A stretch of 64,000 nucleotides of DNA from Ignavibacteriales bacterium (GCA_026390635.1 JAPLFO010000139.1:34333-98332), one strand, 5' to 3'; numbered from the stretch's first letter, positions 26,857 to 40,676 are shown. Notes: generated from the sequence alone by a model not told the origin. Translations and numbers: made by a program.

Positions 26857-28671
26857 TCAGTTTCTTTTTTTAGGCAGCTTCGGCAAATTCTTCGTTAAGG
26901 AATTCATAATCCCGCCGCCGCCTTTTTTCGGTGTCACTTTCTGCAGCGGCTGATTATCGTGCTGCTTGTTCACAAAGAACTGCTGACCGATGGAGAGAAT
27001 ATTGAAAACAAAGTAATACAGATTTAGTCCGGACGGGAAGTTGTTGAACAAAAGCCACATCATGATCGGCATCATCCAGACCATGCTTTTCTGACGCGGG
27101 TCGGTCACCGTCATCTTCTGCTGAACGAACATTGTGATACCCATCAGCAGCGCTACGCCGCTCAGTGCGTGGACGCCAAACAGCGGCAGCGTAAACGGCA
27201 GGCTCAGAACAACATCCGGAACGGAAAGATCTTTAATCCACCAGAAAAATTCCGCATGCCGAAGGTTGATCGACGTCGTAAAGAGCGTATAGAGCGCATA
27301 GAGAATCGGCATCTGCAGTAGCAGCGGCAGACATCCGCCGGCCGGATTGACGCCGTAGTCTTTGTAGAGCTTCATCACCTGCTCGTTCATCTTTGCAGGA
27401 TCGTCTTTGTATTTTACCTTGATCTCTTCCATCATCGGCTGGAGAGCCTGCATCTTCTTCATCGACTTCATGCTGTTTTTGTTCAGCGGATGAAGGGCGA
27501 CTTTGATGAGGATGGAGAAGAGGATGATTACGATGCCGTAGTTCGGGATGAAGAGATGCAAAAAGCGAAATAGCGGCATGAATATGTAGTTGTTCAACGG
27601 CCGGATCCAGGACCATCCCATGCTGAGTATGTTGTCCAGGCTGCGCCCAATATTTTTGATTACTGTGAAGTCCAATGGACCAAGAAACACGGTGAAGGAT
27701 GTTGTTTCTTCCATTCCGTTTTTGTAAGGCACTTTGAGGCCGATGGAATAATGCTCAAGAGCTCCGCCGGATGGTGCGCTCTCATGTTTGCCGCCGAGAT
27801 ATCCCCCTTGCGCTTTTTTGTCATCAGAGAGGAGGGCAACGGCAAAATATTTTGTGCGCGCAGCCACCCAGTCTGTCGAACCATTGGTATTCGATTCCGG
27901 TAATTCTCCGACTTTGGCTGCATCGATCTCGCTCAGTTCGCCTCCGGCAAAAAGGAATGCTTTCGCAGACTGCGATTCGTCGACGCTGTTGTATTCCGCA
28001 TAGCGAAGACCGCTTTCCCAGACCACCTGGTACTCATAATTGGCAATAACCCGCTGCACCCCTTTGAATGTCACCGCCGCATTGAACGTATAGTCGCCGT
28101 TCTTAAAGCGAAGTGTTTTGATAATGCTTCCGTCGCCGGCTTTCAGCTCAAAGGCAACAGTGTACTCCTCGCTTCCCGTCAGCGTCACGGATTGCGATGT
28201 CCGGAATGATCCATCAAAAAAGAGCGAACGGGTGTTGATGAGCTTTCCGTCGGTGGTATTGAAGAGGAGTGAAAAATCTCCCTGCTCCGGCGACTGCACC
28301 AGCTGCACGGGATTTCCATCCCATGTTTTGTACTGTTTCATCTCCCACGTACGGATGACGCCGCCTTTGGTGGAAAGTACTGCTTTGTACTGATCTGTTT
28401 CAATCGTCAACAAGCGTTCTGTCCCATTCGCTGCTCCGGAAAAATACTTTCCCAGTGTATCGCGCAGTGATGCGTCTTCCGGCACGGATGTCGTAACAGA
28501 TTCTTTCTGCTGCGAACGTTGTGCGGCAGCCGGTTTTGCGTGGGCCGAGTCTTTTGTCAACTCGGACTTTGATTTCAACTCCTGCTTGTTGGGGTTTGGC
28601 GAAGAGTACCACATCCACGCCATCAATACCACCGCGATGAGAACAAATCCTATTGTTGACTGTTTATCCAT
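26857..28671 (-). CDS. yidC: membrane protein insertase YidC
   Basis: 604 aa with an N-terminal TM, a large periplasmic domain and the C-terminal 5-TM YidC/Oxa1 core. Confidence 0.9.
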   Translation of the reverse strand: MDKQSTIGFVLIAVVLMAWMWYSSPNPNKQELKSKSELTKDSAHAKPAAAQRSQQKESVTTSVPEDASLRDTLGKYFSGAANGTERLLTIETDQYKAVLSTKGGVIRTWEMKQYKTWDGNPVQLVQSPEQGDFSLLFNTTDGKLINTRSLFFDGSFRTSQSVTLTGSEEYTVAFELKAGDGSIIKTLRFKNGDYTFNAAVTFKGVQRVIANYEYQVVWESGLRYAEYNSVDESQSAKAFLFAGGELSEIDAAKVGELPESNTNGSTDWVAARTKYFAVALLSDDKKAQGGYLGGKHESAPSGGALEHYSIGLKVPYKNGMEETTSFTVFLGPLDFTVIKNIGRSLDNILSMGWSWIRPLNNYIFMPLFRFLHLFIPNYGIVIILFSILIKVALHPLNKNSMKSMKKMQALQPMMEEIKVKYKDDPAKMNEQVMKLYKDYGVNPAGGCLPLLLQMPILYALYTLFTTSINLRHAEFFWWIKDLSVPDVVLSLPFTLPLFGVHALSGVALLMGITMFVQQKMTVTDPRQKSMVWMMPIMMWLLFNNFPSGLNLYYFVFNILSIGQQFFVNKQHDNQPLQKVTPKKGGGGIMNSLTKNLPKLPKKRN

Positions 28672-29933: not shown

Positions 29934-31349
29934 ATGGAACATGTTACGACTTCCCATCTAAGCAGCCTAGAAACAGCGGAAGCAGGAGGGGTTTGGGAGA
30001 AATGCCTCTCTCTTGTCAAGCCACAAATTCCCACACAAAGCTACAAAACGTGGTTTGAACCCATTCGACCGGTGAAAATCGGCGAAGATGGAGAATTGGT
30101 GGTCAACGTCCCCAGCCAATTTTTTTATGAGTGGTTGGAAGAGCACTATGCGCCGTTGATAAAGAACACTATCACACAATTATTGGGCGGTTTGGGACGC
30201 CTCACGTACATCGTCGTCCCCCCGGACGAATCGGACGCTCCTGTTCCCGTACTTCTGAAGGAACGCGCCGTTGCTCCTCCCCCGCTGGTCCAGATGGAAG
30301 AGCTGCTTCCACCGATCCGTTCTCATCTGAATCCGCGTAATACCTTTGCGAATTTCATCAAGGGGGAGAGCAACCAGCTCGCAAGGGCGGCGGCAACAGC
30401 GGTTGCAAATAATCCCGGAGGAACATCTTTCAATCCCCTCGTCATCTACGGGGGAACCGGATTGGGAAAGACGCATCTTGTTCAGGCAATCGGCAACAGC
30501 TCACTGGAATCTGGAAAGGCAAAACGCGTCGATTATGTCTCCAGCGAGAAATTCATGGTCGAGTTCGTGGAGTCCATCAAGTCCGACACAATGGCACACT
30601 TTTCGAACTACTATCGAAGCATGGATATTTTAATAGTCGACGACATCCAGTTCCTTGCCGGAAAAGAAAAGACACAGGATAGTTTCTTCCATACATTTAA
30701 CACGCTTCACCAGTTGGGAAAACAGATTGTCCTTTCATCGGACAGGGCTCCCAAAGATTTAAAGGGACTCGATGACCGTCTCTTGTCCCGATTTCAGTGG
30801 GGATTGACGGCTGACATCCAGCCGCCGGATCTGGAAACCAGAACAGCCATTCTGCGCAAGAAGTGCGATGATGACAGTATTGATATGCCGCAGGAAGTCT
30901 TGGATTTTATGGCGGCAAATGTCACTTCCAATATCCGCGAATTGGAGGGATGTTATATCAGCCTTCTTGCAAAGTCATCTCTCGAAAACAGAGAGATCAA
31001 CATCGATCTTGCACGTGATGTGCTCCGAATCGTCGTCAATGATGTCAGAATGCCGATTACTGTCGATGCTATTCAACGCACCGTGGCAGAGTACTATGAC
31101 ATTCCTACGGATCTGTTGCGTGCAAAAACCCGGCGACAGGAGATTGTTACTGCCCGCCAGGCGGCGATGTATCTTGCAAAGGAAATGACCAATTGTTCGC
31201 TGAAGACCATTGGGCTTCATTTTGGAGGCCGCGACCACAGCACGGTAATTCATGCATACCAATGCGTCGAGGATCAGCTCAAGACAGATTCCACCTTCAG
31301 AGACACGCTCGATCAGATGCGGAAAAAGATCACCAACACTTCTCGCTGA
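29934..31349 (+). CDS. dnaA: chromosomal replication initiator protein DnaA
   Basis: 471 aa with AAA+ (GGTGLGKTHL), sensor motifs and a C-terminal DNA-binding domain (…HSTVIHA…). Confidence 0.95.
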   Translation: MEHVTTSHLSSLETAEAGGVWEKCLSLVKPQIPTQSYKTWFEPIRPVKIGEDGELVVNVPSQFFYEWLEEHYAPLIKNTITQLLGGLGRLTYIVVPPDESDAPVPVLLKERAVAPPPLVQMEELLPPIRSHLNPRNTFANFIKGESNQLARAAATAVANNPGGTSFNPLVIYGGTGLGKTHLVQAIGNSSLESGKAKRVDYVSSEKFMVEFVESIKSDTMAHFSNYYRSMDILIVDDIQFLAGKEKTQDSFFHTFNTLHQLGKQIVLSSDRAPKDLKGLDDRLLSRFQWGLTADIQPPDLETRTAILRKKCDDDSIDMPQEVLDFMAANVTSNIRELEGCYISLLAKSSLENREINIDLARDVLRIVVNDVRMPITVDAIQRTVAEYYDIPTDLLRAKTRRQEIVTARQAAMYLAKEMTNCSLKTIGLHFGGRDHSTVIHAYQCVEDQLKTDSTFRDTLDQMRKKITNTSR

Positions 31350-31770: not shown

Positions 31771-32739
31771 ATGTGGACTGCAGCTATTCTTGCCGCATTT
31801 GTCTGTATATGGATAGTGTTTGAATATAGACTTCGTAAGCCCGATCAGTTGGTGCTTCGCGAAACTGCCAAAGGACTGACAATCCGCACGGGACGTTTCT
31901 ATCCGCGTCATTTCAGTCTGGCAATGTCCCGTACCACTCACTCTTTTGCCGTCACCGTGGATGCTTCAGCAAAAGGAAACCTCGATGTGCGCGTGAAAAT
32001 TGCCGTTTCAGTTACAGCGTCCACAGATAATATTTTCGCTTTAATGCGGGTAGGAGGCTGGAATTCCGGAGCGGTTGAAAAGGCAGCGAAAGAACTGGAA
32101 TCGATTTTCATCGGAACAGTAAAAGGATATACCGAACATTTGGATATTGAAAGCATTTCGTCTGCGCAGATTGCACAACATTTGATGCAAAGTGCAAAAA
32201 ATGTTCGGGAGACATTGGGTCTGGAAATTCTATCATTGTCGATACTTTCTTCCGAACCGGTGAACATACAGATATCGGAAGCGCTGCGGCAGAGAGAAAG
32301 CGCGCGCATTCTCGAACAAACAGAAATGCTGAATCAACAGGCACGCGTTGCCACCGCAAGAGCACGTGCTGCTGCCGATGAGGAGATAGCGTTGGTTGAA
32401 CATCAACGCGAGGTGAAACAGATTGAACTGAAGACAGCTTCTTTCGCAAAAGAGTCCCACCTACAATCTCTGCGTGTGGAAGAAGAGATAAAACACACAA
32501 AACTGCGTCTGGAGATGGAAAAGAAAGAACTCGACCTTCTCAAAGGAAGTCCCGAGTTGCTGATGTTGACACCACAGGCGGCGAGGTTGGCCGAAGCAAG
32601 CCAGGGACTGAAAAACGCGCGAACAGTCGTCTCCGTTGGATCAAAGGAAATTGCACAAGGAGTTGAACTGTTTGGTATTTTTCAAAAAGTATTCGAACAA
32701 GCCGTCACGACATACAAGCAGAAATCAAAAGACAAATAA
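31771..32739 (+). CDS. SPFH/band-7 (flotillin-like) membrane protein
   Basis: 322 aa with an N-terminal TM helix, an SPFH domain, then an Ala/Glu-rich coiled-coil (…ARARAAADEEIALVEHQREVKQIELK…). Its stop TAA is immediately followed by the ATG of the next gene. Confidence 0.75.
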   Translation: MWTAAILAAFVCIWIVFEYRLRKPDQLVLRETAKGLTIRTGRFYPRHFSLAMSRTTHSFAVTVDASAKGNLDVRVKIAVSVTASTDNIFALMRVGGWNSGAVEKAAKELESIFIGTVKGYTEHLDIESISSAQIAQHLMQSAKNVRETLGLEILSLSILSSEPVNIQISEALRQRESARILEQTEMLNQQARVATARARAAADEEIALVEHQREVKQIELKTASFAKESHLQSLRVEEEIKHTKLRLEMEKKELDLLKGSPELLMLTPQAARLAEASQGLKNARTVVSVGSKEIAQGVELFGIFQKVFEQAVTTYKQKSKDK

Positions 32740-35700
32740 ATGACGGTCTCTTCATTTCATCTCAAACCGCTGAAAGCGGCGAAGGTATCGGAAATAAGCG
32801 AAGCAACGGCGTCATCCGCCGTGGCACCGGCGGACCGTGTCAATTTCCATATAGGAAATCCAGTGCAGGATACGCGCCTGACGTCGGCGTACTTGCGCAT
32901 GGTTCTTGGAGTGGATATCAACCGCGAAGAACTTGCCGATTCCAATGTGCCGCAATTGCTGCACTTTCTGGGATGGAAGGAGAAGGACGAGGAGGTTATT
33001 GCTTTCTATAGGACGCTAATCCAACGAAGTTCGCCGTACACTCCCCGTGGAGGATTCTCACGCACAGCTCCGCATTCCCTGGTGAAAACTTTTCAGCAGT
33101 GGCTGATGAACCAGCAGGAGCCGCTGGTGTATGATGGAGGAGAAACAAGCGGGCGGCGCGAAATGTCGTTGGGATCCGGCGGAATCGCGGAAGCACTTCG
33201 TGTCTTTTTTCACATGTTGACGCTTTGTGTGGAGATGCGTCCGGTGCACGTTTTTGTTTATGGGACAAGTCTGCCGGCCCCCGTGATGGGGTTTCAGGAG
33301 TTGTTGGTAGAGTATTTGCCGGACGACGAAAAAAAAGCGTTGGAATTTCTTGAGCACGCTCTTGAAGAAAATCCATTTCCTTCCTATGTCGTCCTAGGAC
33401 GAATTTGCAGAGAAGAAACACGGCGCATGCTCCGGTTGTTGAGTATGCGGCACCCATTGTATTTCGTCGAGGCGAATGATGCACCCAACCATCTCTCGCT
33501 GTCGCGCGAAGCAAAACTGGCGCAGAGGGTGATTCGATTTCTATCGGCCGGCATTTTTTCTTCGCGATTCTCCGGACTTTCCACCGTCTTTGTTGCCGGA
33601 CCGTATGAATATCTCGAACTTTTCGACACGATCCATTTTCAGCTCAAAGGAACGCCGTCAGCGTCCGAAATAGAGCTGCTCTCGTATGCCATGACGCATG
33701 ACTTCAGCGCCGTTCCATCCGAGCACATTTCTTCCGACGTTATTATCGACGCTCCTTATGAGGGATTCGGTTTCGGGAACGATCGTGCGTTGCCGCAGAT
33801 CGCCTTCCGCACAGAAGAACGACTTGGCCGCCTCGTTGCGGGGGCGGGGGTAAAACTGAAAGGACTTGCCGATTCGGTTTATCGGCGGACGGAAACTATC
33901 GGTTCCCACATCGGCGATCTTCCATTTATGCAGCCGTTCGATTCGTTTTCCGGAAGGGAAGCAAACAAACTTCTGGAAGACGCACTTCGTTTCATCGATA
34001 GCTCCGAATGGCATGCAGAGCTCACACAGAATTTTCTTGTTGCATTTACGAAGCATCATCCTGAATACCGGTTGAAGAGATGCTGTGCCGCAAGCGGCTC
34101 GTCGCGTACAGCATTGAGTCTGATCGGATTCCACTGCGGGATTTCAGACGTCATTGTTCCAGATCTGAGCTGGACGTACGAGCACTGTTTTCCACGCGTG
34201 GATGCCGTTCCATTGACGGAAGCATTCGATCTTGATGCGGAAGCAATGATTGCCGCTGCCGCCGAAAAGCTTGCGGTCGACCCATCATGGAAAAAACGCG
34301 GGGCGATTGTCCTCAACAATCCGCACAACGCGACGGGAAAAGTATTCAGCGATTCGGCGATCAGGAAACTGATCACGTGGCTGCTGACAAACGGGATCGC
34401 CGTCATCGACGATTTGTCCTATCAAAATGTTGCGCCAAGGGAAGAGTGGGCAGAAGTGCCGACATTGCGTCAAACGGCGGACGAATTGGTGCGCGGCGGC
34501 ATGGTGACAAGCGCACAAACAGATCGTGTAATTACTGTGCACTCCCTGTCGAAAACAGATTGCTTGGCCGGAGCACGCCTTTCGGTTGTGGAACTACGGG
34601 ATGAGCATCTCTTTGAGAAATTCAAGACGATCAACGCAGGAATACCCGCCAACAGCGGTGCAATATTTCTGACGTATTTGTTCTATCGCAATACCAGGGA
34701 ATCGGTGCGCGCGTACTGGCGGCTGCGAAACGCCATATTCCTTGAACGCTCCGCCGCGTTGCAGGCGGCGGCTGAAAATCTTCCAGCAGAACGGAATCCT
34801 TGCGAAATATCCATTATTCCTCCCACCGGCAGCATGTATCCCCTCCTGCGTGTCGGAAAACTTCCTTCGGGACTTTCGCTGGACTGGCTGGCATCAGGTC
34901 TTGCTCGGCAGGGAATCGGGCTGGTTCCTCTCAGTGCATTTGCGCGAACAGAAAAAGGATTTGAGACAGCGCGCCGCACATTTCGTCTGACGCTGGGCGG
35001 AGTAGATGCGGCGGACACCCTGCTGAAAAAAACACGGCGGGTTCTGATCGATCTGAATCATCTGATCGCGGAGGAGGCCGGGCACTACAATCGTACGGAG
35101 CCGCGGCGTTCGTTGCTTGTCCGGCATTCATCGGGAACCGATTTGTGGGATTCGGTCGAACTACGCGTGCTGGAAAACGCGAAGCAATTGGCAGAGAGCC
35201 GGCGCTTCCTGAAAGGAGAGAAGAACTCCGAATCCCTCCGCGGTCACTTTGCCGAGCGGCTTTCCCGCTTCCGGCAGCGCTTTGTGGATCGGCACGATAC
35301 AGCGACAGCTCTTGTGCAGCGTGCACAAGAAAGCAATGGGCGCACACTGAGTGCTGTTCTCGAGAGGGAATTTCATAAAGAGCCGCTTGCCGTGCGCGAG
35401 GAGACATTCCGTCAACGACTCTTCGACCGGACCGTTCATCCGACGCAAATGTACTCTATTCGTTCTGAAGCGGCGTGGGACGTTCTGATTCATGCGACGT
35501 TGCGCGGAAGAAATCCGTCTGAAACGCTGGTGCAGTGTGCGGCGGAGGAAATGCTTCGCGAGTACTACGGCATGAACGTTGCCATCAATTCCGGGGACGA
35601 ATCGCAGGAACTGATTATCGATCTGGATGCAATGATCGCCGCCGAACTTTCGTCCGAGCTTTGGTTCGAACCGTCGCGGGCATTTGTATCGTTCTGGGGG

Positions 35701-38298
35701 GATTGGGACGGCAGCACACGTCCTTCCGGGCAGGGACATCGATTGGTTGCTTCGGTCTTGATTGAAAATGTCACCCGGCAGTCTGCAATTCTTTCTCTTC
35801 TTTTGGCGTGCGAGCCGTCGTTGTCCATCGATCCGTCGCTCCGCACAGCGCTGGAGCACCTCCGCGAGCAGACGGTAAAATTTACGCGGCTCCTCAACAC
35901 GATCACACAACTGACGCATCAATTGGAGAAGCGATATCGCGGGATTCTTCCATTCAACGTTCGCGCAAGTGCTGCGCGGCGATTGGGTATGTCGCTGCAT
36001 CTTGCCCGCGATCCCGTGACGCTGCTGTGGCATCATAACGATCGTTTGGAACGGACAATGCTGGATCTTCGCCGCAAACGTCGCGAGATGCTGACATACT
36101 ATTTTGCGCTGAATAAAAAACTGCGGAAGGAGTTATTCAAACTTATACCCGCGATCCAGCGCAATATTCACGATCCGGCGATTGCACTGGAAGCAGGTAT
36201 GTATCGCGATTTGCTGCGGCGAATGGTTATTACGCCGCGCATCCACCAGAAAATGATTACAGCGCAGGATCAATTTGCAATCGATACAACGGTTCACAAT
36301 ATCAACGAGATCAACGAAATTGCCGGTCGTCATGGCAATCCCGGAATGGTGCTCGCGCTGCAGGTGAGCATGGCGGCAAAAGCGGAAGCACTGATTTCAC
36401 TCGACAGAAAAATGGGAGCTGCGCGCGAAACAATTTTGCGCGAACATCCGGATGCAGATCTGGCAGCGGTCCGGCTGGTGCCGTTGTTTGAGGATCTTGA
36501 TGCCGTAAGCGAGATTCCCCAATATCTGAATCGGGTCTGGGAGTATTGCCTGCAAAGCCGGCGGATGAATCAGGAACCGCGCGAACGTTTTGCGGAAATT
36601 GTGGGAGAAGTCTTTATTGCCGGATCGGACCTGAGCCAGCAAATCGGGCAAACAGCAGGATCGGCCGCATACCGACGTGCAAAAAAAGACCTTATCTTCT
36701 GGTTGGCCGAGCGCGGATTGACGGATGCCGTTCGCTTGAAGATGGGGAGCGGAGAACCGATGCAGAGGCAGGGCGGTTACTATGCAGAGTACTCCGGCGC
36801 GGCGGCATTTCTCCATACGCCCGAAATAGAGCAGCGACTCGTCAGCCAGCTTCATGCATCCACCCGAAAGAGTACGGAATACGCAACGACGCCGTTGATG
36901 GGCGTGTTTGCCGGAGGAGATCTCCGCACATTTCAATCCGCAATTTCGGAACAGCTTCGTTACCTTTCAACCTCCGATCTCTCGCGGCTGCTCCATCATA
37001 TTCGATCGACGCAGCAAACACACCGCAGCGATCTCGTTCGGGCCAGCGAATCATTTGCCGAGACGCGCCTGAAAGGAACGTCGCACGGAACACAGGAACT
37101 GGAGCGCCTCACCATCGGTACGCAGGAAAAGGCATTCGAAGAATTCCTGCCGTTGGTAACCAAGAATTTCCGCCAGATATTGTACGGAGCCGATGACGAT
37201 GTCGTCGGCATTCATCTGATCTCGTACTTCATCGCGAGATCGTCACCAATTCTACGAGATCGTCCGACCGTCCGTCCCAGCCGGACCATGTCCGCAGACC
37301 GCGGACAGAAGATCCTGGAACGCATTGCCGAAACGATTCCATCGTCGCGTTACGGAAGCATGCTGCGGGCGATTGCACATAACCAGGCCCAGACAACCGT
37401 GCTGGGTGTCAATCAATTGACCACCGGATTGTTTCGTGCGCTCGATACGGTTTCGCGGACGGAAACAGGAGAGCGTTCCGTCGAAGCGGCGGCGGTGGAA
37501 CGGATTCTTCCCCATCTTCCGGTCTACGAAATTCTGCAGACGCTCCGATTGTATCACGATCCCGCGCTTCACTATTTGCAGAGAATAGAACGCGCTTTTC
37601 CTGCGGGCAACTCTGCGTTTCTCGCGCTGCGTGAAGACAATGATGCCATGGCAGGATTTGTCGGCATCTTTCAAAAGGAGCTACTCCGGCGTCATGGTGT
37701 CGACGTTCCCGATTTTTTTGACGGTGATACATTTATTCCAGATCTCTTGCCGACACTTCGTCCCGATCTCGCGGTGCTGCTGCAGCCGGATCTCTTCAAC
37801 ACAAATGCCGAGATATTGCGGGAATCCATTCACGGACCTGTTCCATCCTCCTGGACGAAGTCGGTCGATGAACTGCTGGCCGCGCCCCGGAAGATTGCTG
37901 CATGGCGTGAAAACATCTGGCAGATACTGGAGCGGCCGGTATTTCAGCGCGTACAGAGTTTTGCCGAGCTTGCAATTTCGCTTCATTCACTCTCGCGGTC
38001 AACGGGCGCGCCGGAAACAGGCGGGAGCAAAAAGGGATTGAAGCTTTCTCCGGATCTTTCCCATTTCTTCCGTATTGCCCGATCAGACGACGACATGCGC
38101 CAGTTCCTTGCGGCCTCGCTGGAATATCTTTCGTCCATGTCCGGCGGCATGGTGGAGGTGCCCATCAGTATTGTGCGCGCGATGAAAGAAGTCGAGAGGA
38201 TTGCCAAAATTGAGGAGCAGGTGCTGTTGCCCAAAGAGCAGGATGTGCTGCGTTTCTATCTGCTGCAAATAGCCCGGCTCACCGGCGAGAACGGATAA
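32740..38298 (+). CDS. giant (1852 aa) multidomain protein: class I/II aminotransferase-like domain with a large insertion, fused to a full-length divergent phosphoenolpyruvate carboxylase-like domain
   Basis: The aminotransferase domain shows the N-terminal RVNFHIGNPVQDT (as in NLGIGEPDF), AIVLNNPHNATGKVF (NPxNPTG), IAVIDDLSYQN (Asp/Tyr), VHSLSKTDCLAGARLS (PLP Lys and Arg at +8) and a C-terminal small domain ending FRLTLGG at about residue 760. A roughly 420-aa insertion sits between the first and second motifs. The PEPC-like domain shows TVHPTQ at residue 900 (TAHPTE), VPLFEDLDAV at 1247 (VPLFETIEDL), IAGSDLSQQIGQTAGSAAYRRAKKDL at 1293 (GYSDSxKDAG…WAxYxAQ), LKMGSGEPMQRQGG at 1333 (FHGRGGSxGRGG, with His/Arg replaced) and a C-terminal …RLTGENG* (PEPC ends …RNTG). 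Spacing between these motifs matches E. coli Ppc. Confidence 0.65.
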   Translation: MTVSSFHLKPLKAAKVSEISEATASSAVAPADRVNFHIGNPVQDTRLTSAYLRMVLGVDINREELADSNVPQLLHFLGWKEKDEEVIAFYRTLIQRSSPYTPRGGFSRTAPHSLVKTFQQWLMNQQEPLVYDGGETSGRREMSLGSGGIAEALRVFFHMLTLCVEMRPVHVFVYGTSLPAPVMGFQELLVEYLPDDEKKALEFLEHALEENPFPSYVVLGRICREETRRMLRLLSMRHPLYFVEANDAPNHLSLSREAKLAQRVIRFLSAGIFSSRFSGLSTVFVAGPYEYLELFDTIHFQLKGTPSASEIELLSYAMTHDFSAVPSEHISSDVIIDAPYEGFGFGNDRALPQIAFRTEERLGRLVAGAGVKLKGLADSVYRRTETIGSHIGDLPFMQPFDSFSGREANKLLEDALRFIDSSEWHAELTQNFLVAFTKHHPEYRLKRCCAASGSSRTALSLIGFHCGISDVIVPDLSWTYEHCFPRVDAVPLTEAFDLDAEAMIAAAAEKLAVDPSWKKRGAIVLNNPHNATGKVFSDSAIRKLITWLLTNGIAVIDDLSYQNVAPREEWAEVPTLRQTADELVRGGMVTSAQTDRVITVHSLSKTDCLAGARLSVVELRDEHLFEKFKTINAGIPANSGAIFLTYLFYRNTRESVRAYWRLRNAIFLERSAALQAAAENLPAERNPCEISIIPPTGSMYPLLRVGKLPSGLSLDWLASGLARQGIGLVPLSAFARTEKGFETARRTFRLTLGGVDAADTLLKKTRRVLIDLNHLIAEEAGHYNRTEPRRSLLVRHSSGTDLWDSVELRVLENAKQLAESRRFLKGEKNSESLRGHFAERLSRFRQRFVDRHDTATALVQRAQESNGRTLSAVLEREFHKEPLAVREETFRQRLFDRTVHPTQMYSIRSEAAWDVLIHATLRGRNPSETLVQCAAEEMLREYYGMNVAINSGDESQELIIDLDAMIAAELSSELWFEPSRAFVSFWGDWDGSTRPSGQGHRLVASVLIENVTRQSAILSLLLACEPSLSIDPSLRTALEHLREQTVKFTRLLNTITQLTHQLEKRYRGILPFNVRASAARRLGMSLHLARDPVTLLWHHNDRLERTMLDLRRKRREMLTYYFALNKKLRKELFKLIPAIQRNIHDPAIALEAGMYRDLLRRMVITPRIHQKMITAQDQFAIDTTVHNINEINEIAGRHGNPGMVLALQVSMAAKAEALISLDRKMGAARETILREHPDADLAAVRLVPLFEDLDAVSEIPQYLNRVWEYCLQSRRMNQEPRERFAEIVGEVFIAGSDLSQQIGQTAGSAAYRRAKKDLIFWLAERGLTDAVRLKMGSGEPMQRQGGYYAEYSGAAAFLHTPEIEQRLVSQLHASTRKSTEYATTPLMGVFAGGDLRTFQSAISEQLRYLSTSDLSRLLHHIRSTQQTHRSDLVRASESFAETRLKGTSHGTQELERLTIGTQEKAFEEFLPLVTKNFRQILYGADDDVVGIHLISYFIARSSPILRDRPTVRPSRTMSADRGQKILERIAETIPSSRYGSMLRAIAHNQAQTTVLGVNQLTTGLFRALDTVSRTETGERSVEAAAVERILPHLPVYEILQTLRLYHDPALHYLQRIERAFPAGNSAFLALREDNDAMAGFVGIFQKELLRRHGVDVPDFFDGDTFIPDLLPTLRPDLAVLLQPDLFNTNAEILRESIHGPVPSSWTKSVDELLAAPRKIAAWRENIWQILERPVFQRVQSFAELAISLHSLSRSTGAPETGGSKKGLKLSPDLSHFFRIARSDDDMRQFLAASLEYLSSMSGGMVEVPISIVRAMKEVERIAKIEEQVLLPKEQDVLRFYLLQIARLTGENG

Positions 38299-38393: not shown

Positions 38394-40676
38394 TCATGTT
38401 TGCGGTGACCGTGCTTCCGCAGCGGGAAGCTCAATGAAGAATTTACTGCCAACCCCTTCTTGCGATTCCACCCATACGGTGCCGTTGTGACGTTCTACAA
38501 TCTTCTTCACGAGCGGCAGGCCAAGTCCCTCACCCTGAATAATTCCGCGCGGGTTCAGGCGGTGAAAGAGTTCCCACACCTTCTGCCTGTGCTCGGCGGC
38601 AATTCCGATTCCGTTGTCTTCAACAGAGTAAACGATGCTCTCCCGGTGAAAACTGGCGCCAATTGTGATGACGGGATGACGCTCCGACGCGGCGTATTTC
38701 AGGGCATTGTCGATAAGATTGGAAAACACCTGGTTGATTTGACCGGAATCTCCGTGGCAGGGAGGAAGGTTTCCCGCGATAATGGAAGCATGCGCATTTT
38801 CTATTTGATATTTTAGAGAGTCAACAACATTTTCGAGCAGCTGATTCATGTTGATATACTCAGCGTGAAGATCGATGCGCCCACTGCGCGAGAATCGGAG
38901 GAGTCCACTGATGAGGGAATCCATTTTCTTGCCGCTGCTTTGAATGAAACGCAATGACGTTTCGATATCGTCGGTCAGCGTGGGCAGCGTTTTTGTCTTG
39001 AATGCGTCGGGAGGTAGAAGCGTCTGAAGAAGCTGCGAGAATTCGCGAAAAGAACGCGCAAGCTGCTCGCCAAAGCCAAGGATGTTGATTATAGGAGAAC
39101 GAAGGTCGTGTGATGTAACATACACAACATTTTCCAAATCCTGGTTTTTTTGTGCAAGCTGCACCAGAAGCGCCCCACGCTCGGTCTCGGCAAACCGCCT
39201 GTCTGTAACATCCTGCGTTGTGCCGAACACATCATACACATTGTCCCGCGCGATAGATTCGGCGACAGTGCGCAGGTGGCGGAGGCCGGATTCTCCAGCG
39301 GGAAGAGCGCGATATTCCACACCCATGGGCATTCCCTCATTCAGCGCAGAACGGAATGCCGAGTCCACCATCGGACGATCCTCCTCAACGACCGTTGCAA
39401 GAAAGTCTTTCAGAAAAAGATGGGCATCAGCTGGATATCCCAAAAGACGGCACATCTCTGTAGAGGAATCGAAGAGACCGCTGCGTCCGTCAAAATGCCA
39501 GCTACCGATATGGGCGATGGATTGAGCGCGGTGCAGCTGTGCTTCACTTTCGCGCAGAGCCTCTTCTGCCTTGTTTCGTCGAATGATGTTCATGCGCTGT
39601 ACAAAAATTGCAAGCGCGAGAAATAATATTATCACCGCCGCCGTATTGATGACCGTACGATGGACTTCGTAGAATCCGGGAGGGCGGTTGATCAAAACAA
39701 CGCCGGCGGGAAGCCGCTGATTTGTAAGACCATAGCGCTCCAGGGCGTTGTAGTCCAACACTAAACGATACGGGTTATTGACAACAACCGGAATAAGTGA
39801 CGCATGCTCTCCAGCCAGGATGCGAAGCGCGAGCTCTGCGGCGCGCATTGCATGAGGACGTCCGCCCAAAACGCTGCCACCGACAGCTCCAAATCCCATC
39901 CGCTCACCGTGAACGGCATATACGGGTACCGACGAAGCCTTGGCAAGTATGCGCGAGATATCCGGATGATTAAAGAGCTCACCGGAATTATCCCTGCTGA
40001 ACGACAGCGACAGGAGGATGGTGCCGTCAGAGAGACGGCGGACTGTATCAAGGATCTGTCCGATCGAGAGCGGCGGGAGATAGCGTACATGAATTCCAGA
40101 ATTCAATCCACGTAACCGTTCTTCCGCTTCCCGGCGAGTGGAAAGACCGGTACTGGTATAGTCATGAAGAACAACAATGTTGCGGATCTCAGGCTGCAGC
40201 GCAAGGGCAAGAGAAACGGTGCCGATGATATCCAGATATTCTGCGACACCGGTAATCTGTTGTATTCCCGTCACCATCTCCGGTCGATAGCCATTAATGC
40301 CCATGAAAACAATGGGGATGCCGGGAAAGAGTTGATCCCGAAACCTCACTGCGAAATCAAGAGCTGGATTGTCGAGAACAAAAACGATCGAAACCGGAAC
40401 GAGAGACAACTTTGTTTTTAGAAGATTCTTTGCAGCTTCAAAATGTTCGTAGGTCGGAAAGTGTTTGCAGTCAAGATACTCGATCATCGGATCGATTGGA
40501 ATTCTTGCAGCGGAAAAAGATTCAAGAATTCCGTTCACTTCTTCGTCAGACCAGGAATAGCCGTAATGATACGAATTCAGAATCAGAATGCTTTTCGTGG
40601 TTGATGGAACAGCAGAAGAGGTGGAGAGCAGAAGGAGGCTCATTCCCGCTATCAGACAGATGCGACATCGCCACAT
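38394..40676 (-). CDS. sensor histidine kinase with periplasmic ABC-type substrate-binding-protein-like sensor domain
   Basis: 760 aa with a signal peptide, a roughly 300-aa periplasmic binding-protein-like domain, a TM helix, a PAS-like region, HisKA (VTSHDLRSP) and HATPase_c (…DNGIGIAAEH…GLGLPLVK…). No response regulator is adjacent. Confidence 0.8.
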   Translation of the reverse strand: MWRCRICLIAGMSLLLLSTSSAVPSTTKSILILNSYHYGYSWSDEEVNGILESFSAARIPIDPMIEYLDCKHFPTYEHFEAAKNLLKTKLSLVPVSIVFVLDNPALDFAVRFRDQLFPGIPIVFMGINGYRPEMVTGIQQITGVAEYLDIIGTVSLALALQPEIRNIVVLHDYTSTGLSTRREAEERLRGLNSGIHVRYLPPLSIGQILDTVRRLSDGTILLSLSFSRDNSGELFNHPDISRILAKASSVPVYAVHGERMGFGAVGGSVLGGRPHAMRAAELALRILAGEHASLIPVVVNNPYRLVLDYNALERYGLTNQRLPAGVVLINRPPGFYEVHRTVINTAAVIILFLALAIFVQRMNIIRRNKAEEALRESEAQLHRAQSIAHIGSWHFDGRSGLFDSSTEMCRLLGYPADAHLFLKDFLATVVEEDRPMVDSAFRSALNEGMPMGVEYRALPAGESGLRHLRTVAESIARDNVYDVFGTTQDVTDRRFAETERGALLVQLAQKNQDLENVVYVTSHDLRSPIINILGFGEQLARSFREFSQLLQTLLPPDAFKTKTLPTLTDDIETSLRFIQSSGKKMDSLISGLLRFSRSGRIDLHAEYINMNQLLENVVDSLKYQIENAHASIIAGNLPPCHGDSGQINQVFSNLIDNALKYAASERHPVITIGASFHRESIVYSVEDNGIGIAAEHRQKVWELFHRLNPRGIIQGEGLGLPLVKKIVERHNGTVWVESQEGVGSKFFIELPAAEARSPQT

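Follow-up and report, generated by a model that had tools for sequence, protein, structure and literature searches.

A protein family found mostly in Ignavibacteriota joins an aminotransferase to a putative, highly divergent PEP carboxylase-like domain with a remodelled glycine-rich loop

In the PEP carboxylase (PEPC) of E. coli, Arg581 is reportedly one of three arginines that bind the phosphate of PEP. A passage of PMC11832675, citing Terada & Izui 1991, Terada et al. 1991 and Yano et al. 1995, reports that Arg587, together with His138 and His579, is important for catalysis by this enzyme. Reviews distinguish four types of PEPC, which fall into two sequence classes, bacterial/plant and archaeal (PMC8100219). 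The protein described here is encoded in a 64,000-nucleotide stretch of DNA from an Ignavibacteriales bacterium (the window). Judging from its predicted structure and its motifs, the C-terminal ~1000 residues may represent a third, highly divergent lineage of the PEPC fold, and the segment initially flagged its β5-β7 active-site region; together with the activity and the coupling to the aminotransferase proposed below, we give this reading an even chance. The fusion family would then stand as a third, deeply divergent PEPC lineage beside the two sequence classes.

The protein is the 1852-aa product of an intact ORF (32740-38298, plus strand), in which an N-terminal α/β domain is followed by an aminotransferase and a PEPC-like domain. 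All of the motifs quoted in the initial annotation were found in this single ORF. The flagged segment, 36478-36780, corresponds to residues 1247-1347; its VPLFED motif starts exactly at 36478 on the plus strand, but TVHPTQ, although real, lies ~1 kb upstream of the interval to which it had been assigned. The product is identical to P0001, recorded as 'PLP-dependent aminotransferase [Ignavibacteriales bacterium]'. Public records name only the aminotransferase half of the fusion, and its ~1000 C-terminal residues carry no annotation.

The N-terminal α/β domain (residues 1-345; 32740-33774, plus strand) contains the invariant motifs HIGNPV, PYxPRGG, NDAPNHLSLAREA and FQLKGTPSA, and hhalign detected no link between it and the aminotransferase core. 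An AF2 model covering both domains (m72effb7fbcc8) reached a pLDDT of 83.9. The aminotransferase core (residues ~400-790; 33937-35109, plus strand) was assigned to fold-type I (class I/II) by Pfam, Foldseek and motifs. It passed the threshold of Aminotran_1_2, PF00155 (45.3 bits versus a cutoff of 19.7, E 8.9e-12), and its AF2 model is of fold-type I, with Foldseek matches to AspAT, ACC synthase, DapC and LysN (E ~1e-13, TMt ~0.66). The motifs, all on the plus strand, are NNPHNATG with Asn530 (34315-34338), IDDLSY with Asp558 and Tyr561 (34405-34422), HSLSKTD with the PLP Lys605 (34540-34560), the GAR motif with Arg613 (34570-34584) and FRLTLGG with Arg749 (34978-35001). NNPHN, (I/V)DDLSY, S-x-S-K-T-D, AGAR and FRLTLGG were each present in 147-150 of the 151 full-length members (~98%). 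An intact upstream aminotransferase, which the initial annotation had considered informative, is thus confirmed by its Asn, Asp/Tyr, Ser-x-Ser-Lys and two Arg motifs, its Pfam score and its modelled fold. The scores fell far below every NCBIfam equivalog cutoff, such that the substrate specificity is not assignable.

The PEPC-like domain (residues ~850-1852; 35287-38295, plus strand) is marked by the PEPC fold of its model and by collinear PEPC motifs. In a Foldseek search of the PDB with the AF2 model of this domain, ranks 1-15 were all PEPCs, including the maize enzyme 6u2t (E 1.5e-4), that of Arabidopsis and the archaeal-type 3odm, followed by other PEP/pyruvate barrels. The model was template-free, and two different methods of comparing structures both ranked PEPC first; alignments to PEPC were likewise the longest and had the highest identity. 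The predicted fold appears to combine a β-barrel with a large helical superstructure, as in PEPC, in a model of moderate quality (pLDDT 63.8, pTM 0.51; slice residues 496-710 below 50) with TM-scores to PEPC of 0.2-0.27.

The identity to bacterial/plant-type PEPC is 11-15%. For the whole 1852-aa protein, Pfam gave no PEPC match at E<=1 and no match of any kind above threshold in the ~1000 C-terminal residues, and full-length profile searches against the PDB and E. coli Ppc returned nothing significant. Hand-picked slices scored at best 14 bits (E 0.012) against PF00311 (PEPcase; curated cutoff of 22.4 not reached) and 16.1 bits (E 0.0042) against PF14010 (PEPcase_2; cutoff of 25 not reached). 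Slices from 58 family members gave sub-threshold matches to PF00311 in 30 cases (best E 2.6e-5) and to PF14010 in 13 (best E 1.6e-4); the sole other recurrent family at this level was PF01877, RNA_binding (15 of the 58 slices, best E 0.0078). Even between E. coli Ppc and 3odm, a bona fide archaeal-type PEPC, the match has an E of only 1.4, and a weak sequence signal between PEPC classes is therefore normal. When 13-aa windows around the catalytic residues of E. coli were slid over the family PSSM, those for His138, the WMGGDRDGNP block, Glu506, Asp543 and the Gly loop each matched best at the motif expected. The collinear motif chain scored 122.7, versus 73.9 ± 8.7 in 2000 column shuffles (z 5.6), none of which reached it. 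An hhalign alignment of the β4-β7 region with residues 455-600 of E. coli Ppc (P 0.008) passes through ISMA, PLFE, GYSDS and the Gly loop. The PEPC-like character claimed for the domain is borne out by the structure search, the structural alignments and the Pfam near-matches in family slices.

Among the retained motifs, DRTVHPTQ (35425-35448, plus strand; TVHPTQ at residues 898-903, 35431-35448) lies where predicted β1 ends and corresponds to E. coli VLTAHPTE, with His900 in the place of His138. It is the best PSSM match of the His138 window, a strand in the AF2 model and an invariant block in the 26-sequence alignment, so that TAHPTE is indeed kept as TVHPTQ with its His, as initially annotated. 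DRTVHPTQ was found in 161 of 161 members, which were selected by the substring HPTQ, so that only the flanking residues are independently shown. The near-invariant FWGDWDGSTRPSGQGH (35692-35739, plus strand) is the best PSSM match to E. coli SWMGGDRDGNP, on predicted β2, and LALQVSMA (36352-36375, plus strand), a strand in the AF2 model, is aligned by hhalign with AYVISMAK of β4. The invariant VPLFED (residues 1247-1252; 36478-36495, plus strand), on β5, is both the best PSSM match (score 25.5) and the hhalign counterpart of the Glu506 region, with Glu1251 in the position of this metal ligand. FIAGSDLSQQ (residues 1292-1301; 36613-36642, plus strand), on β6, places Asp1297 at the metal ligand Asp543 by the same two methods, with Gln1300 at the position of Lys546; F[IVF]AGSDLSQ was read in 152 members. 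Counterparts of both metal ligands, Glu506 of PLFE and Asp543 of GYSDS, are thus present, and PLFE(D/E) and AGSDLS are invariant.

The strand β7 and the remodelled Gly-rich loop are formed by VRLKMGSGEPMQRQGGYY (residues 1331-1348; 36730-36783, plus strand), as aligned without gaps by PSSM and by hhalign. The ungapped alignment pairs LTLFHGRGGSIGRGG with VRLKMGSGEPMQRQGG, and places Met1335 at His579, Ser1337 at Arg581 and Arg1343, the Arg of QRQ, in register with Arg587. In the 149 readable loops, the His579 position is occupied by Met (77), Leu (66), Phe (5) or Tyr (1) and never by His, and the Arg581 position by Ser (137), Cys (6), Thr (4) or Asn (2) and never by Arg. Three loop residues are new and invariant, Arg1332, Lys1334 and Glu1339 (the Lys and the Glu in 149 of 149 loops). 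The replacement of His579 and Arg581, noted initially for this one protein, therefore extends to every orthologue examined; the GRGG arginine, conversely, had been described as displaced, but lies in register with the Arg of QRQGG, which is Arg in all 149 loops. Orthologues with a canonical FHGRGG, which would have refuted the initial reading, were looked for, and neither FHGRGG nor GRGG occurs anywhere in the family. Instead of FHGRGGxxGRGG, the family reads K-[MLF]-G-[SCTN]-G-E-x-x-Q-R-Q-G-G, and of His579, Arg581 and Arg587 only the last is kept. The consensus R-x-K-[MLF]-G-[S]-G-E-x-x-Q-R-Q-G-G-Y-Y is near-invariant, also in the 10 most divergent members fetched. QRGGG was read in place of QRQGG in four members.

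Candidate counterparts of Arg396, Arg699 and Arg713 are invariant arginines in TPR1167IHQ, in RDR1508P plus LR1543AI, or in residues 1068-1107, as suggested by alignments that are non-significant and conflicting. Arg1167, the candidate for Arg396, lies in ITPRIHQ (36229-36249, plus strand) on predicted β3, with AF2 strands at slice residues 322-329 and an invariant T-P-R; in conflict with this assignment, hhalign pairs ITPRIHQ with E. coli LLPRNWQ. The invariant GILPF..RR..LARDP..WHHNDRLE (residues 1068-1107; 35941-36060, plus strand) resembles E. coli 691-723, the Arg699/Arg713 region, but is out of order (hhalign P 0.06; pLDDT <50). A collinear candidate for E. coli YFRSATP..GSR699PAKRR..SLR713AIPW is the near-invariant LRDRPTVRP ... 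MLRAIAHNQAQT, preceded by SYFIARSSP (37252-37395, plus strand; hhalign P 0.16; pLDDT <50). By direct reading, the protein ends in LTGENG (38278-38295, plus strand), Gly-ended like the PEPC terminus ...MRNTG; G(E/D)(N/S)G closes most members, and its equivalence to the PEPC C-terminus is without statistical support (hhalign P 0.81).

An exhaustive HMMER search of 1.84 billion representatives returned only 244 relatives, and the full-length matches listed were all fusions of 1700-1950 aa. The PEPC-like domain was joined to an intact aminotransferase in every full-length member found. The family occurs in at least 273 species-level genomes, mostly of Ignavibacteriota, and its cultured carriers include Stygiobacter and Rosettibacter isolates as well as Melioribacter strain OK-6-Me, apparently an isolate. 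Directly upstream in the window is a gene for a 322-aa protein (31771-32739, plus strand) with an N-terminal TM helix, an SPFH/Band 7-like region and a coiled-coil tail; the start codon of the large ORF follows immediately on the stop codon of this gene. In 74 of 76 related loci, the gene directly before that of the fusion, in the same orientation, encodes an SPFH-like homologue. In a tblastn comparison, the protein from the window matched the upstream genes of 75 related loci (L005-L084) with 46-58% identity; L004 was not part of this comparison, and its orthologue passes the Pfam Band_7 model (PF01145; 34 bits versus a cutoff of 23.6, E 3.8e-8). The copy in the window gave no Pfam match.

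Across 161 members, and also among the 10 most divergent ones fetched, the motifs at catalytic positions vary little or not at all. Conservation peaks where the barrel strands are predicted to have their C-terminal ends, which is the pattern expected of an active site. A loop that is rebuilt but strictly conserved points to altered chemistry in a functioning enzyme rather than to a dead relic. The most likely reading is of a remodelled PEPC-type domain that is active and coupled to transamination: that the domain is catalytically active seems quite probable, and that its reaction is PEP carboxylation specifically, somewhat doubtful. The domain would be a metal-dependent enzyme, the barrel mouth of which receives an enolpyruvyl or 2-oxo-acid substrate. 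The loop that handles phosphate/bicarbonate would be remodelled, and Arg1332 and Lys1334 may stand in for Arg581 and His579. Metabolic coupling to the fused aminotransferase would, in its simplest form, convert PEP and HCO3- via oxaloacetate to aspartate in one polypeptide, possibly tethered at the membrane through the SPFH partner. Doubtful as a whole is the more far-reaching proposal of a third PEPC class, in which an Arg-x-Lys on β7 and a Glu would replace His579 and Arg581, and which would be hard-wired to an aspartate-type aminotransferase, making aspartate from PEP and bicarbonate in one 205-kDa polypeptide that a dedicated SPFH scaffold organises at the membrane, or, still newer, of a PEPC-fold enzyme that carboxylates or cleaves another enol or 2-oxo-acid substrate in a new reaction.

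As a tentative alternative, the PEPC fold might serve another reaction, that of a metal-dependent lyase or decarboxylase of the PEP/pyruvate superfamily (e.g., an oxaloacetate decarboxylase or 2-oxo-acid aldolase), acting without phosphoryl transfer on the 2-oxo acid of the aminotransferase. Such acids are naturally supplied or used by an aminotransferase, and no member keeps Arg581, which binds the PEP phosphate, His579 or Lys546. The lineage also has other anaplerotic enzymes: Pyc, Mae and Pck are reported for Melioribacter roseus (PMC3534657), and thus no 'missing anaplerotic enzyme' demands a PEPC. However, the kept residues are PEPC-specific (the TAHPTE His, the WxGDxDG block and the loop Arg587), the motifs follow one another throughout as in PEPC, and PEPC also gives the longest structural alignments, with the highest identity; the Pfam near-matches are two PEPC families, not HpcH, CitE or ICL.

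Changed chemistry, one of the two outcomes initially envisaged, may apply; the other, a pseudo-enzyme or scaffold, fits poorly and is unlikely. Here catalysis would have been lost, and the domain would act as a scaffold for oligomerisation or, by binding a ligand such as aspartate, malate or PEP, as an allosteric sensor that serves the aminotransferase. PEPC domains do form tetramers and bear allosteric sites (PMC8100219), similarity to PEPC is very low, and three canonical catalytic or binding residues are gone; yet in 149-161 members, including the most divergent fetched, hardly any change is seen at His138, Arg587, the two metal ligands or the rebuilt loop, conservation clusters where an active site would lie, and ~1000 residues are kept in all of the full-length members listed. 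Short PEPC-like motifs arising by chance on an unrelated helical or TIM-barrel protein are very improbable, since against the non-significant full-length HMM and hhalign comparisons and the low TM-scores stand the retrieval of PEPC first from a template-free model by two methods, the recurrent PEPcase and PEPcase_2 near-matches (best E 2.6e-5), the collinear motif test (z 5.6, 0/2000 shuffles) and the bare match between bona fide PEPC classes themselves (E 1.4).

A remodelled PEPC-type domain coupled to transamination would show, as a natural experiment, which residues of the PEPC loop can be dispensed with, His579 and Arg581 being gone and His138 and Arg587 kept. As a fusion of a carboxylase-like domain with an aminotransferase it would also be rare, and oxaloacetate, which is unstable, could be channelled within it. 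The SPFH-like membrane scaffold with which it is strictly paired hints at central metabolism localised to the membrane. If the chemistry proves different, a new enzyme would be defined.

Operons of SPFH/Band 7 proteins with their partners are known, as in stomatin-NfeD and HflK/C-FtsH. The present locus is alike in that a membrane-anchored, SPFH-like protein is encoded beside, and presumably co-transcribed with, its partner, which here, in contrast, is a 205-kDa, soluble-looking, predicted bifunctional metabolic enzyme, neither a protease nor NfeD. No description of an SPFH gene paired with such a fusion was found. With the AspAT/DapC/LysN/ACC synthase group (PF00155), the fusion shares the Pfam family, the superposition of its AF2 model on AspAT and ACC synthase, and the motifs of Lys605, Asp558, Tyr561, Asn530, Arg613 and Arg749, to which it adds the 345-aa N-terminal α/β domain and a long connecting helix. 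Malyl-CoA lyase, CitE/CLYBL, HpcH/HpaI aldolases, pyruvate kinase, PPDK and isocitrate lyase give shorter structural alignments (~200 aa) at ~7% identity, lack the PEPC-specific motifs and are absent from the Pfam near-matches. Like archaeal-type PEPC (atPEPC/PepcA, PF14010; 3ODM), with which it was compared by profile, structure search and architecture, the domain is barely linked by sequence to the bacterial/plant type, and PF14010 is a near-match in 13 of 58 slices; atPEPC, however, is a stand-alone protein of 55-60 kDa (PMC8100219), whereas here ~1000 aa lie inside a 205-kDa fusion. Bacterial/plant-type PEPC (E. coli Ppc, PF00311; 1FIY/1JQN, 3ZGE, 6U2T) shares with the domain the order TAHPTE, WxGDxDG, ISMA, PLFE, GYSDS and Gly loop, counterparts of His138, Glu506, Asp543 and Arg587, a similar size (~900-1000 aa) and a Gly end. 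In contrast to that class, the family has Met, Leu or Phe for His579, Ser for Arg581 and Gln for Lys546, together with a new invariant loop Arg, Lys and Glu, and its domain sits behind ~840 aa that include an aminotransferase, in a presumed operon with an SPFH-like protein.

The interval 36478-36780, in which the initial annotation had described a domain resembling phosphoenolpyruvate carboxylase (PEPC) with a changed FHGRGGxxGRGG loop, lies inside a single intact ORF (32740-38298, + strand) of 1852 aa, identical to a public protein (P0001) that is named only as a PLP-dependent aminotransferase. The exact start of the interval, 36478, coincides with VPLFED (aa 1247-1252); FIAGSDLSQQ (aa 1292-1301) falls within it and VRLKMGSGEPMQRQGGYY (aa 1331-1348) at its 3' end. 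The TVHPTQ motif ascribed to the same interval is real but is located at 35431-35448, ~1 kb upstream. The motifs quoted for the aminotransferase (NNPHNATG, IDDLSY and HSLSKTD) were all found in the ORF.

The sole match of the whole protein in Pfam and NCBIfam was Aminotran_1_2 (aa 424-754), with no PEPC family. Both phmmer of the protein against the PDB, in which no PEPC appeared, and hmmsearch of all PDB sequences with a family profile built from 26 sequences returned aminotransferases only, and a phmmer search of the PDB with the flagged region (178 aa) gave no relevant match. Comparisons of the family with the entire E. coli enzyme (Ppc) by hhalign and by hmmsearch --max were both non-significant. 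An exhaustive HMMER search of 1.84 billion representative proteins with the C-terminal profile yielded 244 matches, the best 150 of which all belong to the family (the full-length ones being 1700-1950 aa), with neither canonical PEPC nor bridging relatives from outside the family among these best 150. A homologue search seeded with Ppc recovered only sequences at least 81% identical to it, mostly enterobacterial, a set unusable for profile-profile work.

Sequence support for PEPC emerged when the search was narrowed to the barrel core. For the window protein, the slice from beta3 to beta7 matched PF00311 (PEPcase, bacterial/plant-type) with an E of 0.012, and the same profile was matched by the slices of 30 of 58 family members (best E 2.6e-5). 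PF14010 (PEPcase_2, archaeal-type) was matched by 13 of the 58 (best E 1.6e-4), and the only other recurrent Pfam family was PF01877 RNA_binding (15 of 58 slices, best E 0.0078). So faint a signal is normal between PEPC classes, since Ppc itself matched the archaeal-type PEPC 3ODM with an E of 1.4 only. When 13-residue windows centred on the E. coli catalytic residues were compared with a family PSSM, the single best match fell at the expected motif for His138, the WMGGDRDGNP block, Glu506, Asp543 and the Gly loop. The best collinear motif chain scored 122.7, versus 73.9 +/- 8.7 in 2000 column shuffles (z 5.6; reached by 0 of 2000).

The template-free AF2 model of aa 841-1852 (pLDDT 63.8) was reasonable over its first ~495 residues and poor in residues 496-710. 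In a Foldseek search of the PDB with this model, PEPC occupied every rank from 1 to 15, including the maize (E 1.5e-4), Arabidopsis and archaeal-type (3ODM) enzymes, followed by isocitrate lyase, PPDK and malyl-CoA lyase. Every retained PEPC motif was located at, or just past, a predicted beta-strand. The C-terminal domain is a genuine homologue of PEPC, though a very distant one, and, according to the model, has the PEPC fold.

Individual residues were mapped using E. coli numbering verified on the translated ppc gene. LALQVSM, PLFED, FIAGSDLSQ and VRLKMGSGEPMQRQGG of the family correspond to YVISM, PLFET, MIGYSDSAK and LTLFHGRGGSIGRGG of E. coli, respectively. His138, Glu506, Asp543 and Arg587 are kept as His900, Glu1251, Asp1297 and Arg1343, and Lys546, His579 and Arg581 are replaced by Gln1300, Met1335 and Ser1337. 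The hhalign alignment of family slice 355-520 with Ppc 455-600 (P 0.008) agrees with the ungapped PSSM matches, and both place Arg1343 in register with Arg587; contrary to the initial annotation, the GRGG arginine is therefore not displaced.

The phosphate of PEP is bound by Arg396, Arg581 and Arg713. A candidate for Arg396 is found in TPR1167IHQ, on predicted beta3; hhalign pairs TPRIHQ with E. coli LLPRNWQ instead. Arg699 and Arg713 have two candidate regions, both of low pLDDT: a collinear one (SYFIARSSP-LRDR1508P...LR1543AIAHNQAQT versus YFRSATP..GSRPAKRR..SLRAIPW; P 0.16) and an out-of-order one at aa 1068-1107 (P 0.06). The latter is an invariant segment, GILPFNVRASAARRLGMSLHLARDPVTLLWHHNDRLE (35941-36060), which constitutes the family profile's best local match to Ppc (residues 691-723, the Arg699/Arg713 region) and departs from the order in which all the other PEPC motifs occur; its resemblance could be due to chance or to a relocated mobile loop.

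Across 161 members, WGDWDGSxRPSGQG, TPRIHQ, LQVSM, PLFE, AGSDLSQ, RDRP, LRAI and a C-terminal G-x-x-G were invariant or nearly so. DRTVHPTQ occurred in 161 of 161, a count that is partly by construction because the members were chosen by the substring HPTQ, and was also an invariant block in an independent 26-sequence alignment. Among the 149 readable loops, the His579 position was occupied by Met (77), Leu (66), Phe (5) or Tyr (1), and that of Arg581 by Ser (137), Cys (6), Thr (4) or Asn (2). The reported loss of these two residues is thus conserved among orthologues, with no His or Arg at either site in 149 of 149 loops. The positions of Arg587, Phe578 and Gly583 were Arg, Lys and Glu, respectively, in all 149, and that of Thr576 was Arg in 147; GRGG was absent from the family members. 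The register of Arg587 is supported by four members (P0025, P0051, P0053 and P0054) that read QRGGGYY in place of QRQGGYY, recreating an RGG triplet that resembles the canonical loop. The same loop pattern was seen in the ten most divergent members fetched. As judged from these alignments, the loop is stably remodelled under purifying selection and is not decaying. One family protein, P0043, lacks 14 loop residues (passing from GSGEP directly to AFL), which may reflect either a genuine deletion or an error of assembly.

The aminotransferase half is intact: the motifs of PLP Lys605, Asp558, Tyr561, Asn530, Arg613 and Arg749 were present in ~98% of the 151 members of full length. For aa 1-800, the AF2 model was confident (pLDDT 83.9, pTM 0.83) and matched the fold-type I aminotransferases AspAT, ACC synthase, DapC and LysN (E ~1e-13). 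An extra N-terminal alpha/beta domain (32740-33774, aa 1-345) carries the invariant motifs HIGNPV, PYxPRGG(F/Y), NDAPNHLSLAREA and FQLKGTPSA, and in the model resembles a PLP-type domain of seven strands. A second, degenerate aminotransferase-like domain is one possible reading of it; hhalign of these 345 aa with the aminotransferase core detected no relation (P 0.21) and gives this reading no support.

A 322-aa gene (31771-32739, +), which encodes a TM helix and a coiled coil, ends with a stop codon that adjoins the start codon of the large ORF. In 74 of 76 related loci, the ORF is immediately preceded on the same strand by a homologue of this gene. The orthologue at locus L004 passes the Pfam Band_7/SPFH profile, and the window copy gave no Pfam match. 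The product is probably a membrane-anchored SPFH/Band 7-like coiled-coil protein, in a presumed operon with the large ORF; it would be unusual for a metabolic enzyme to have an SPFH scaffold of its own. No conserved downstream partner was found, the largest cluster covering 12 of 80 loci. A role in anti-phage defence was considered and rejected: PADLOC gave no match for the large enzyme and one weak PbeC match for the SPFH partner (E 0.00099, 15.7 bits), presumed to stem from its coiled-coil tail. The dnaA gene (29934-31349, +; Pfam Bac_DnaA) is located just upstream of the operon, and further upstream is a YidC-like insertase ORF (26857-28671, -), identified by eye from its translation; the chromosomal origin is probably close to the window. 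Three further genomes were checked, and in these the operon did not have dnaA as a neighbour within 6-8 kb. A convergent sensor histidine kinase of 760 aa (38394-40676, -), which carries a PAS domain and, at its N-terminus, a periplasmic domain of ABC-substrate-binding-like type, is not conserved beside the operon elsewhere.

At least 273 of the 185,579 species genomes carry the family, mostly those of Ignavibacteriota, including Melioribacter, Stygiobacter and Rosettibacter, isolates among them. A few carrier MAGs are labelled Acidobacteriota or Chloroflexota; copies ~54-57% identical occur in Acidobacteriota/Bryobacterales and Chloroflexota/Anaerolineae MAGs (loci L054, L065, L067, L069, L071-L075, L077-L079 and L081-L083), and reflect either horizontal transfer or mis-binning. 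An apparent stand-alone PEPC-like protein (P0154, locus L085, 994 aa) begins 412 nt from the end of a contig, following a partial ORF of 100 aa, and probably represents a fusion that was truncated or frameshifted, not a free-standing domain.

In the listed full-length members the PEPC-like domain invariably occurs as a fusion with an intact aminotransferase, and by alignment its putative metal site (Glu/Asp) and the counterparts of His138 and Arg587 are conserved. His579 mutants of PEPC keep partial activity. The PEPC-like domain would be a working metal-dependent enzyme on an enolpyruvyl or 2-oxo-acid substrate, in which the new Arg1332, Lys1334 and Glu1339 would re-engineer the handling of phosphate or bicarbonate. 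Its product or substrate would be common to the aminotransferase, in the simplest case by PEP + HCO3- giving oxaloacetate and then aspartate. His138, His579 and Arg587 are described as important for E. coli PEPC catalysis in PMC11832675 (citing Terada & Izui 1991, Terada et al. 1991 and Yano et al. 1995), and the reaction passes through carboxyphosphate and an enolate (PMC8100219). Catalytic activity of the domain is probable from the residues retained; PEP carboxylation as its specific reaction is less likely than not. Some other reaction on a 2-oxo acid, by a lyase or decarboxylase chemistry and compatible with the replaced residues, is only slightly less probable than PEP carboxylation. A pseudo-enzyme or scaffold, one of the readings offered in the initial annotation, or a sensor, is improbable, the loss of His579 and Arg581 standing beside the conserved metal site. 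Chance resemblance to PEPC, for all the non-significant full-length comparisons, can be dismissed almost entirely on the shuffled motif chains and the Foldseek ranking.

Literature searches on aminotransferase-PEPC fusions and on PEPC in Ignavibacteria turned up nothing pertinent, and no paper describing this domain. The Melioribacter roseus genome paper gives Pyc, Mae and Pck and does not give PEPC (PMC3534657); the lineage is thus without an annotated PEPC, yet because of these three enzymes has no obvious anaplerotic gap. The domain would come as a surprise to those who study PEPC, and cultured strains allow it to be tested. It is folded, and would work, like a PEPC, but it scores below the curated PF00311 threshold and lacks the canonical FHGRGG loop; since it also scores below the PF14010 threshold, it is filed in neither known PEPC class, and the most apt description is a third lineage of the PEPC fold, one that is fused.
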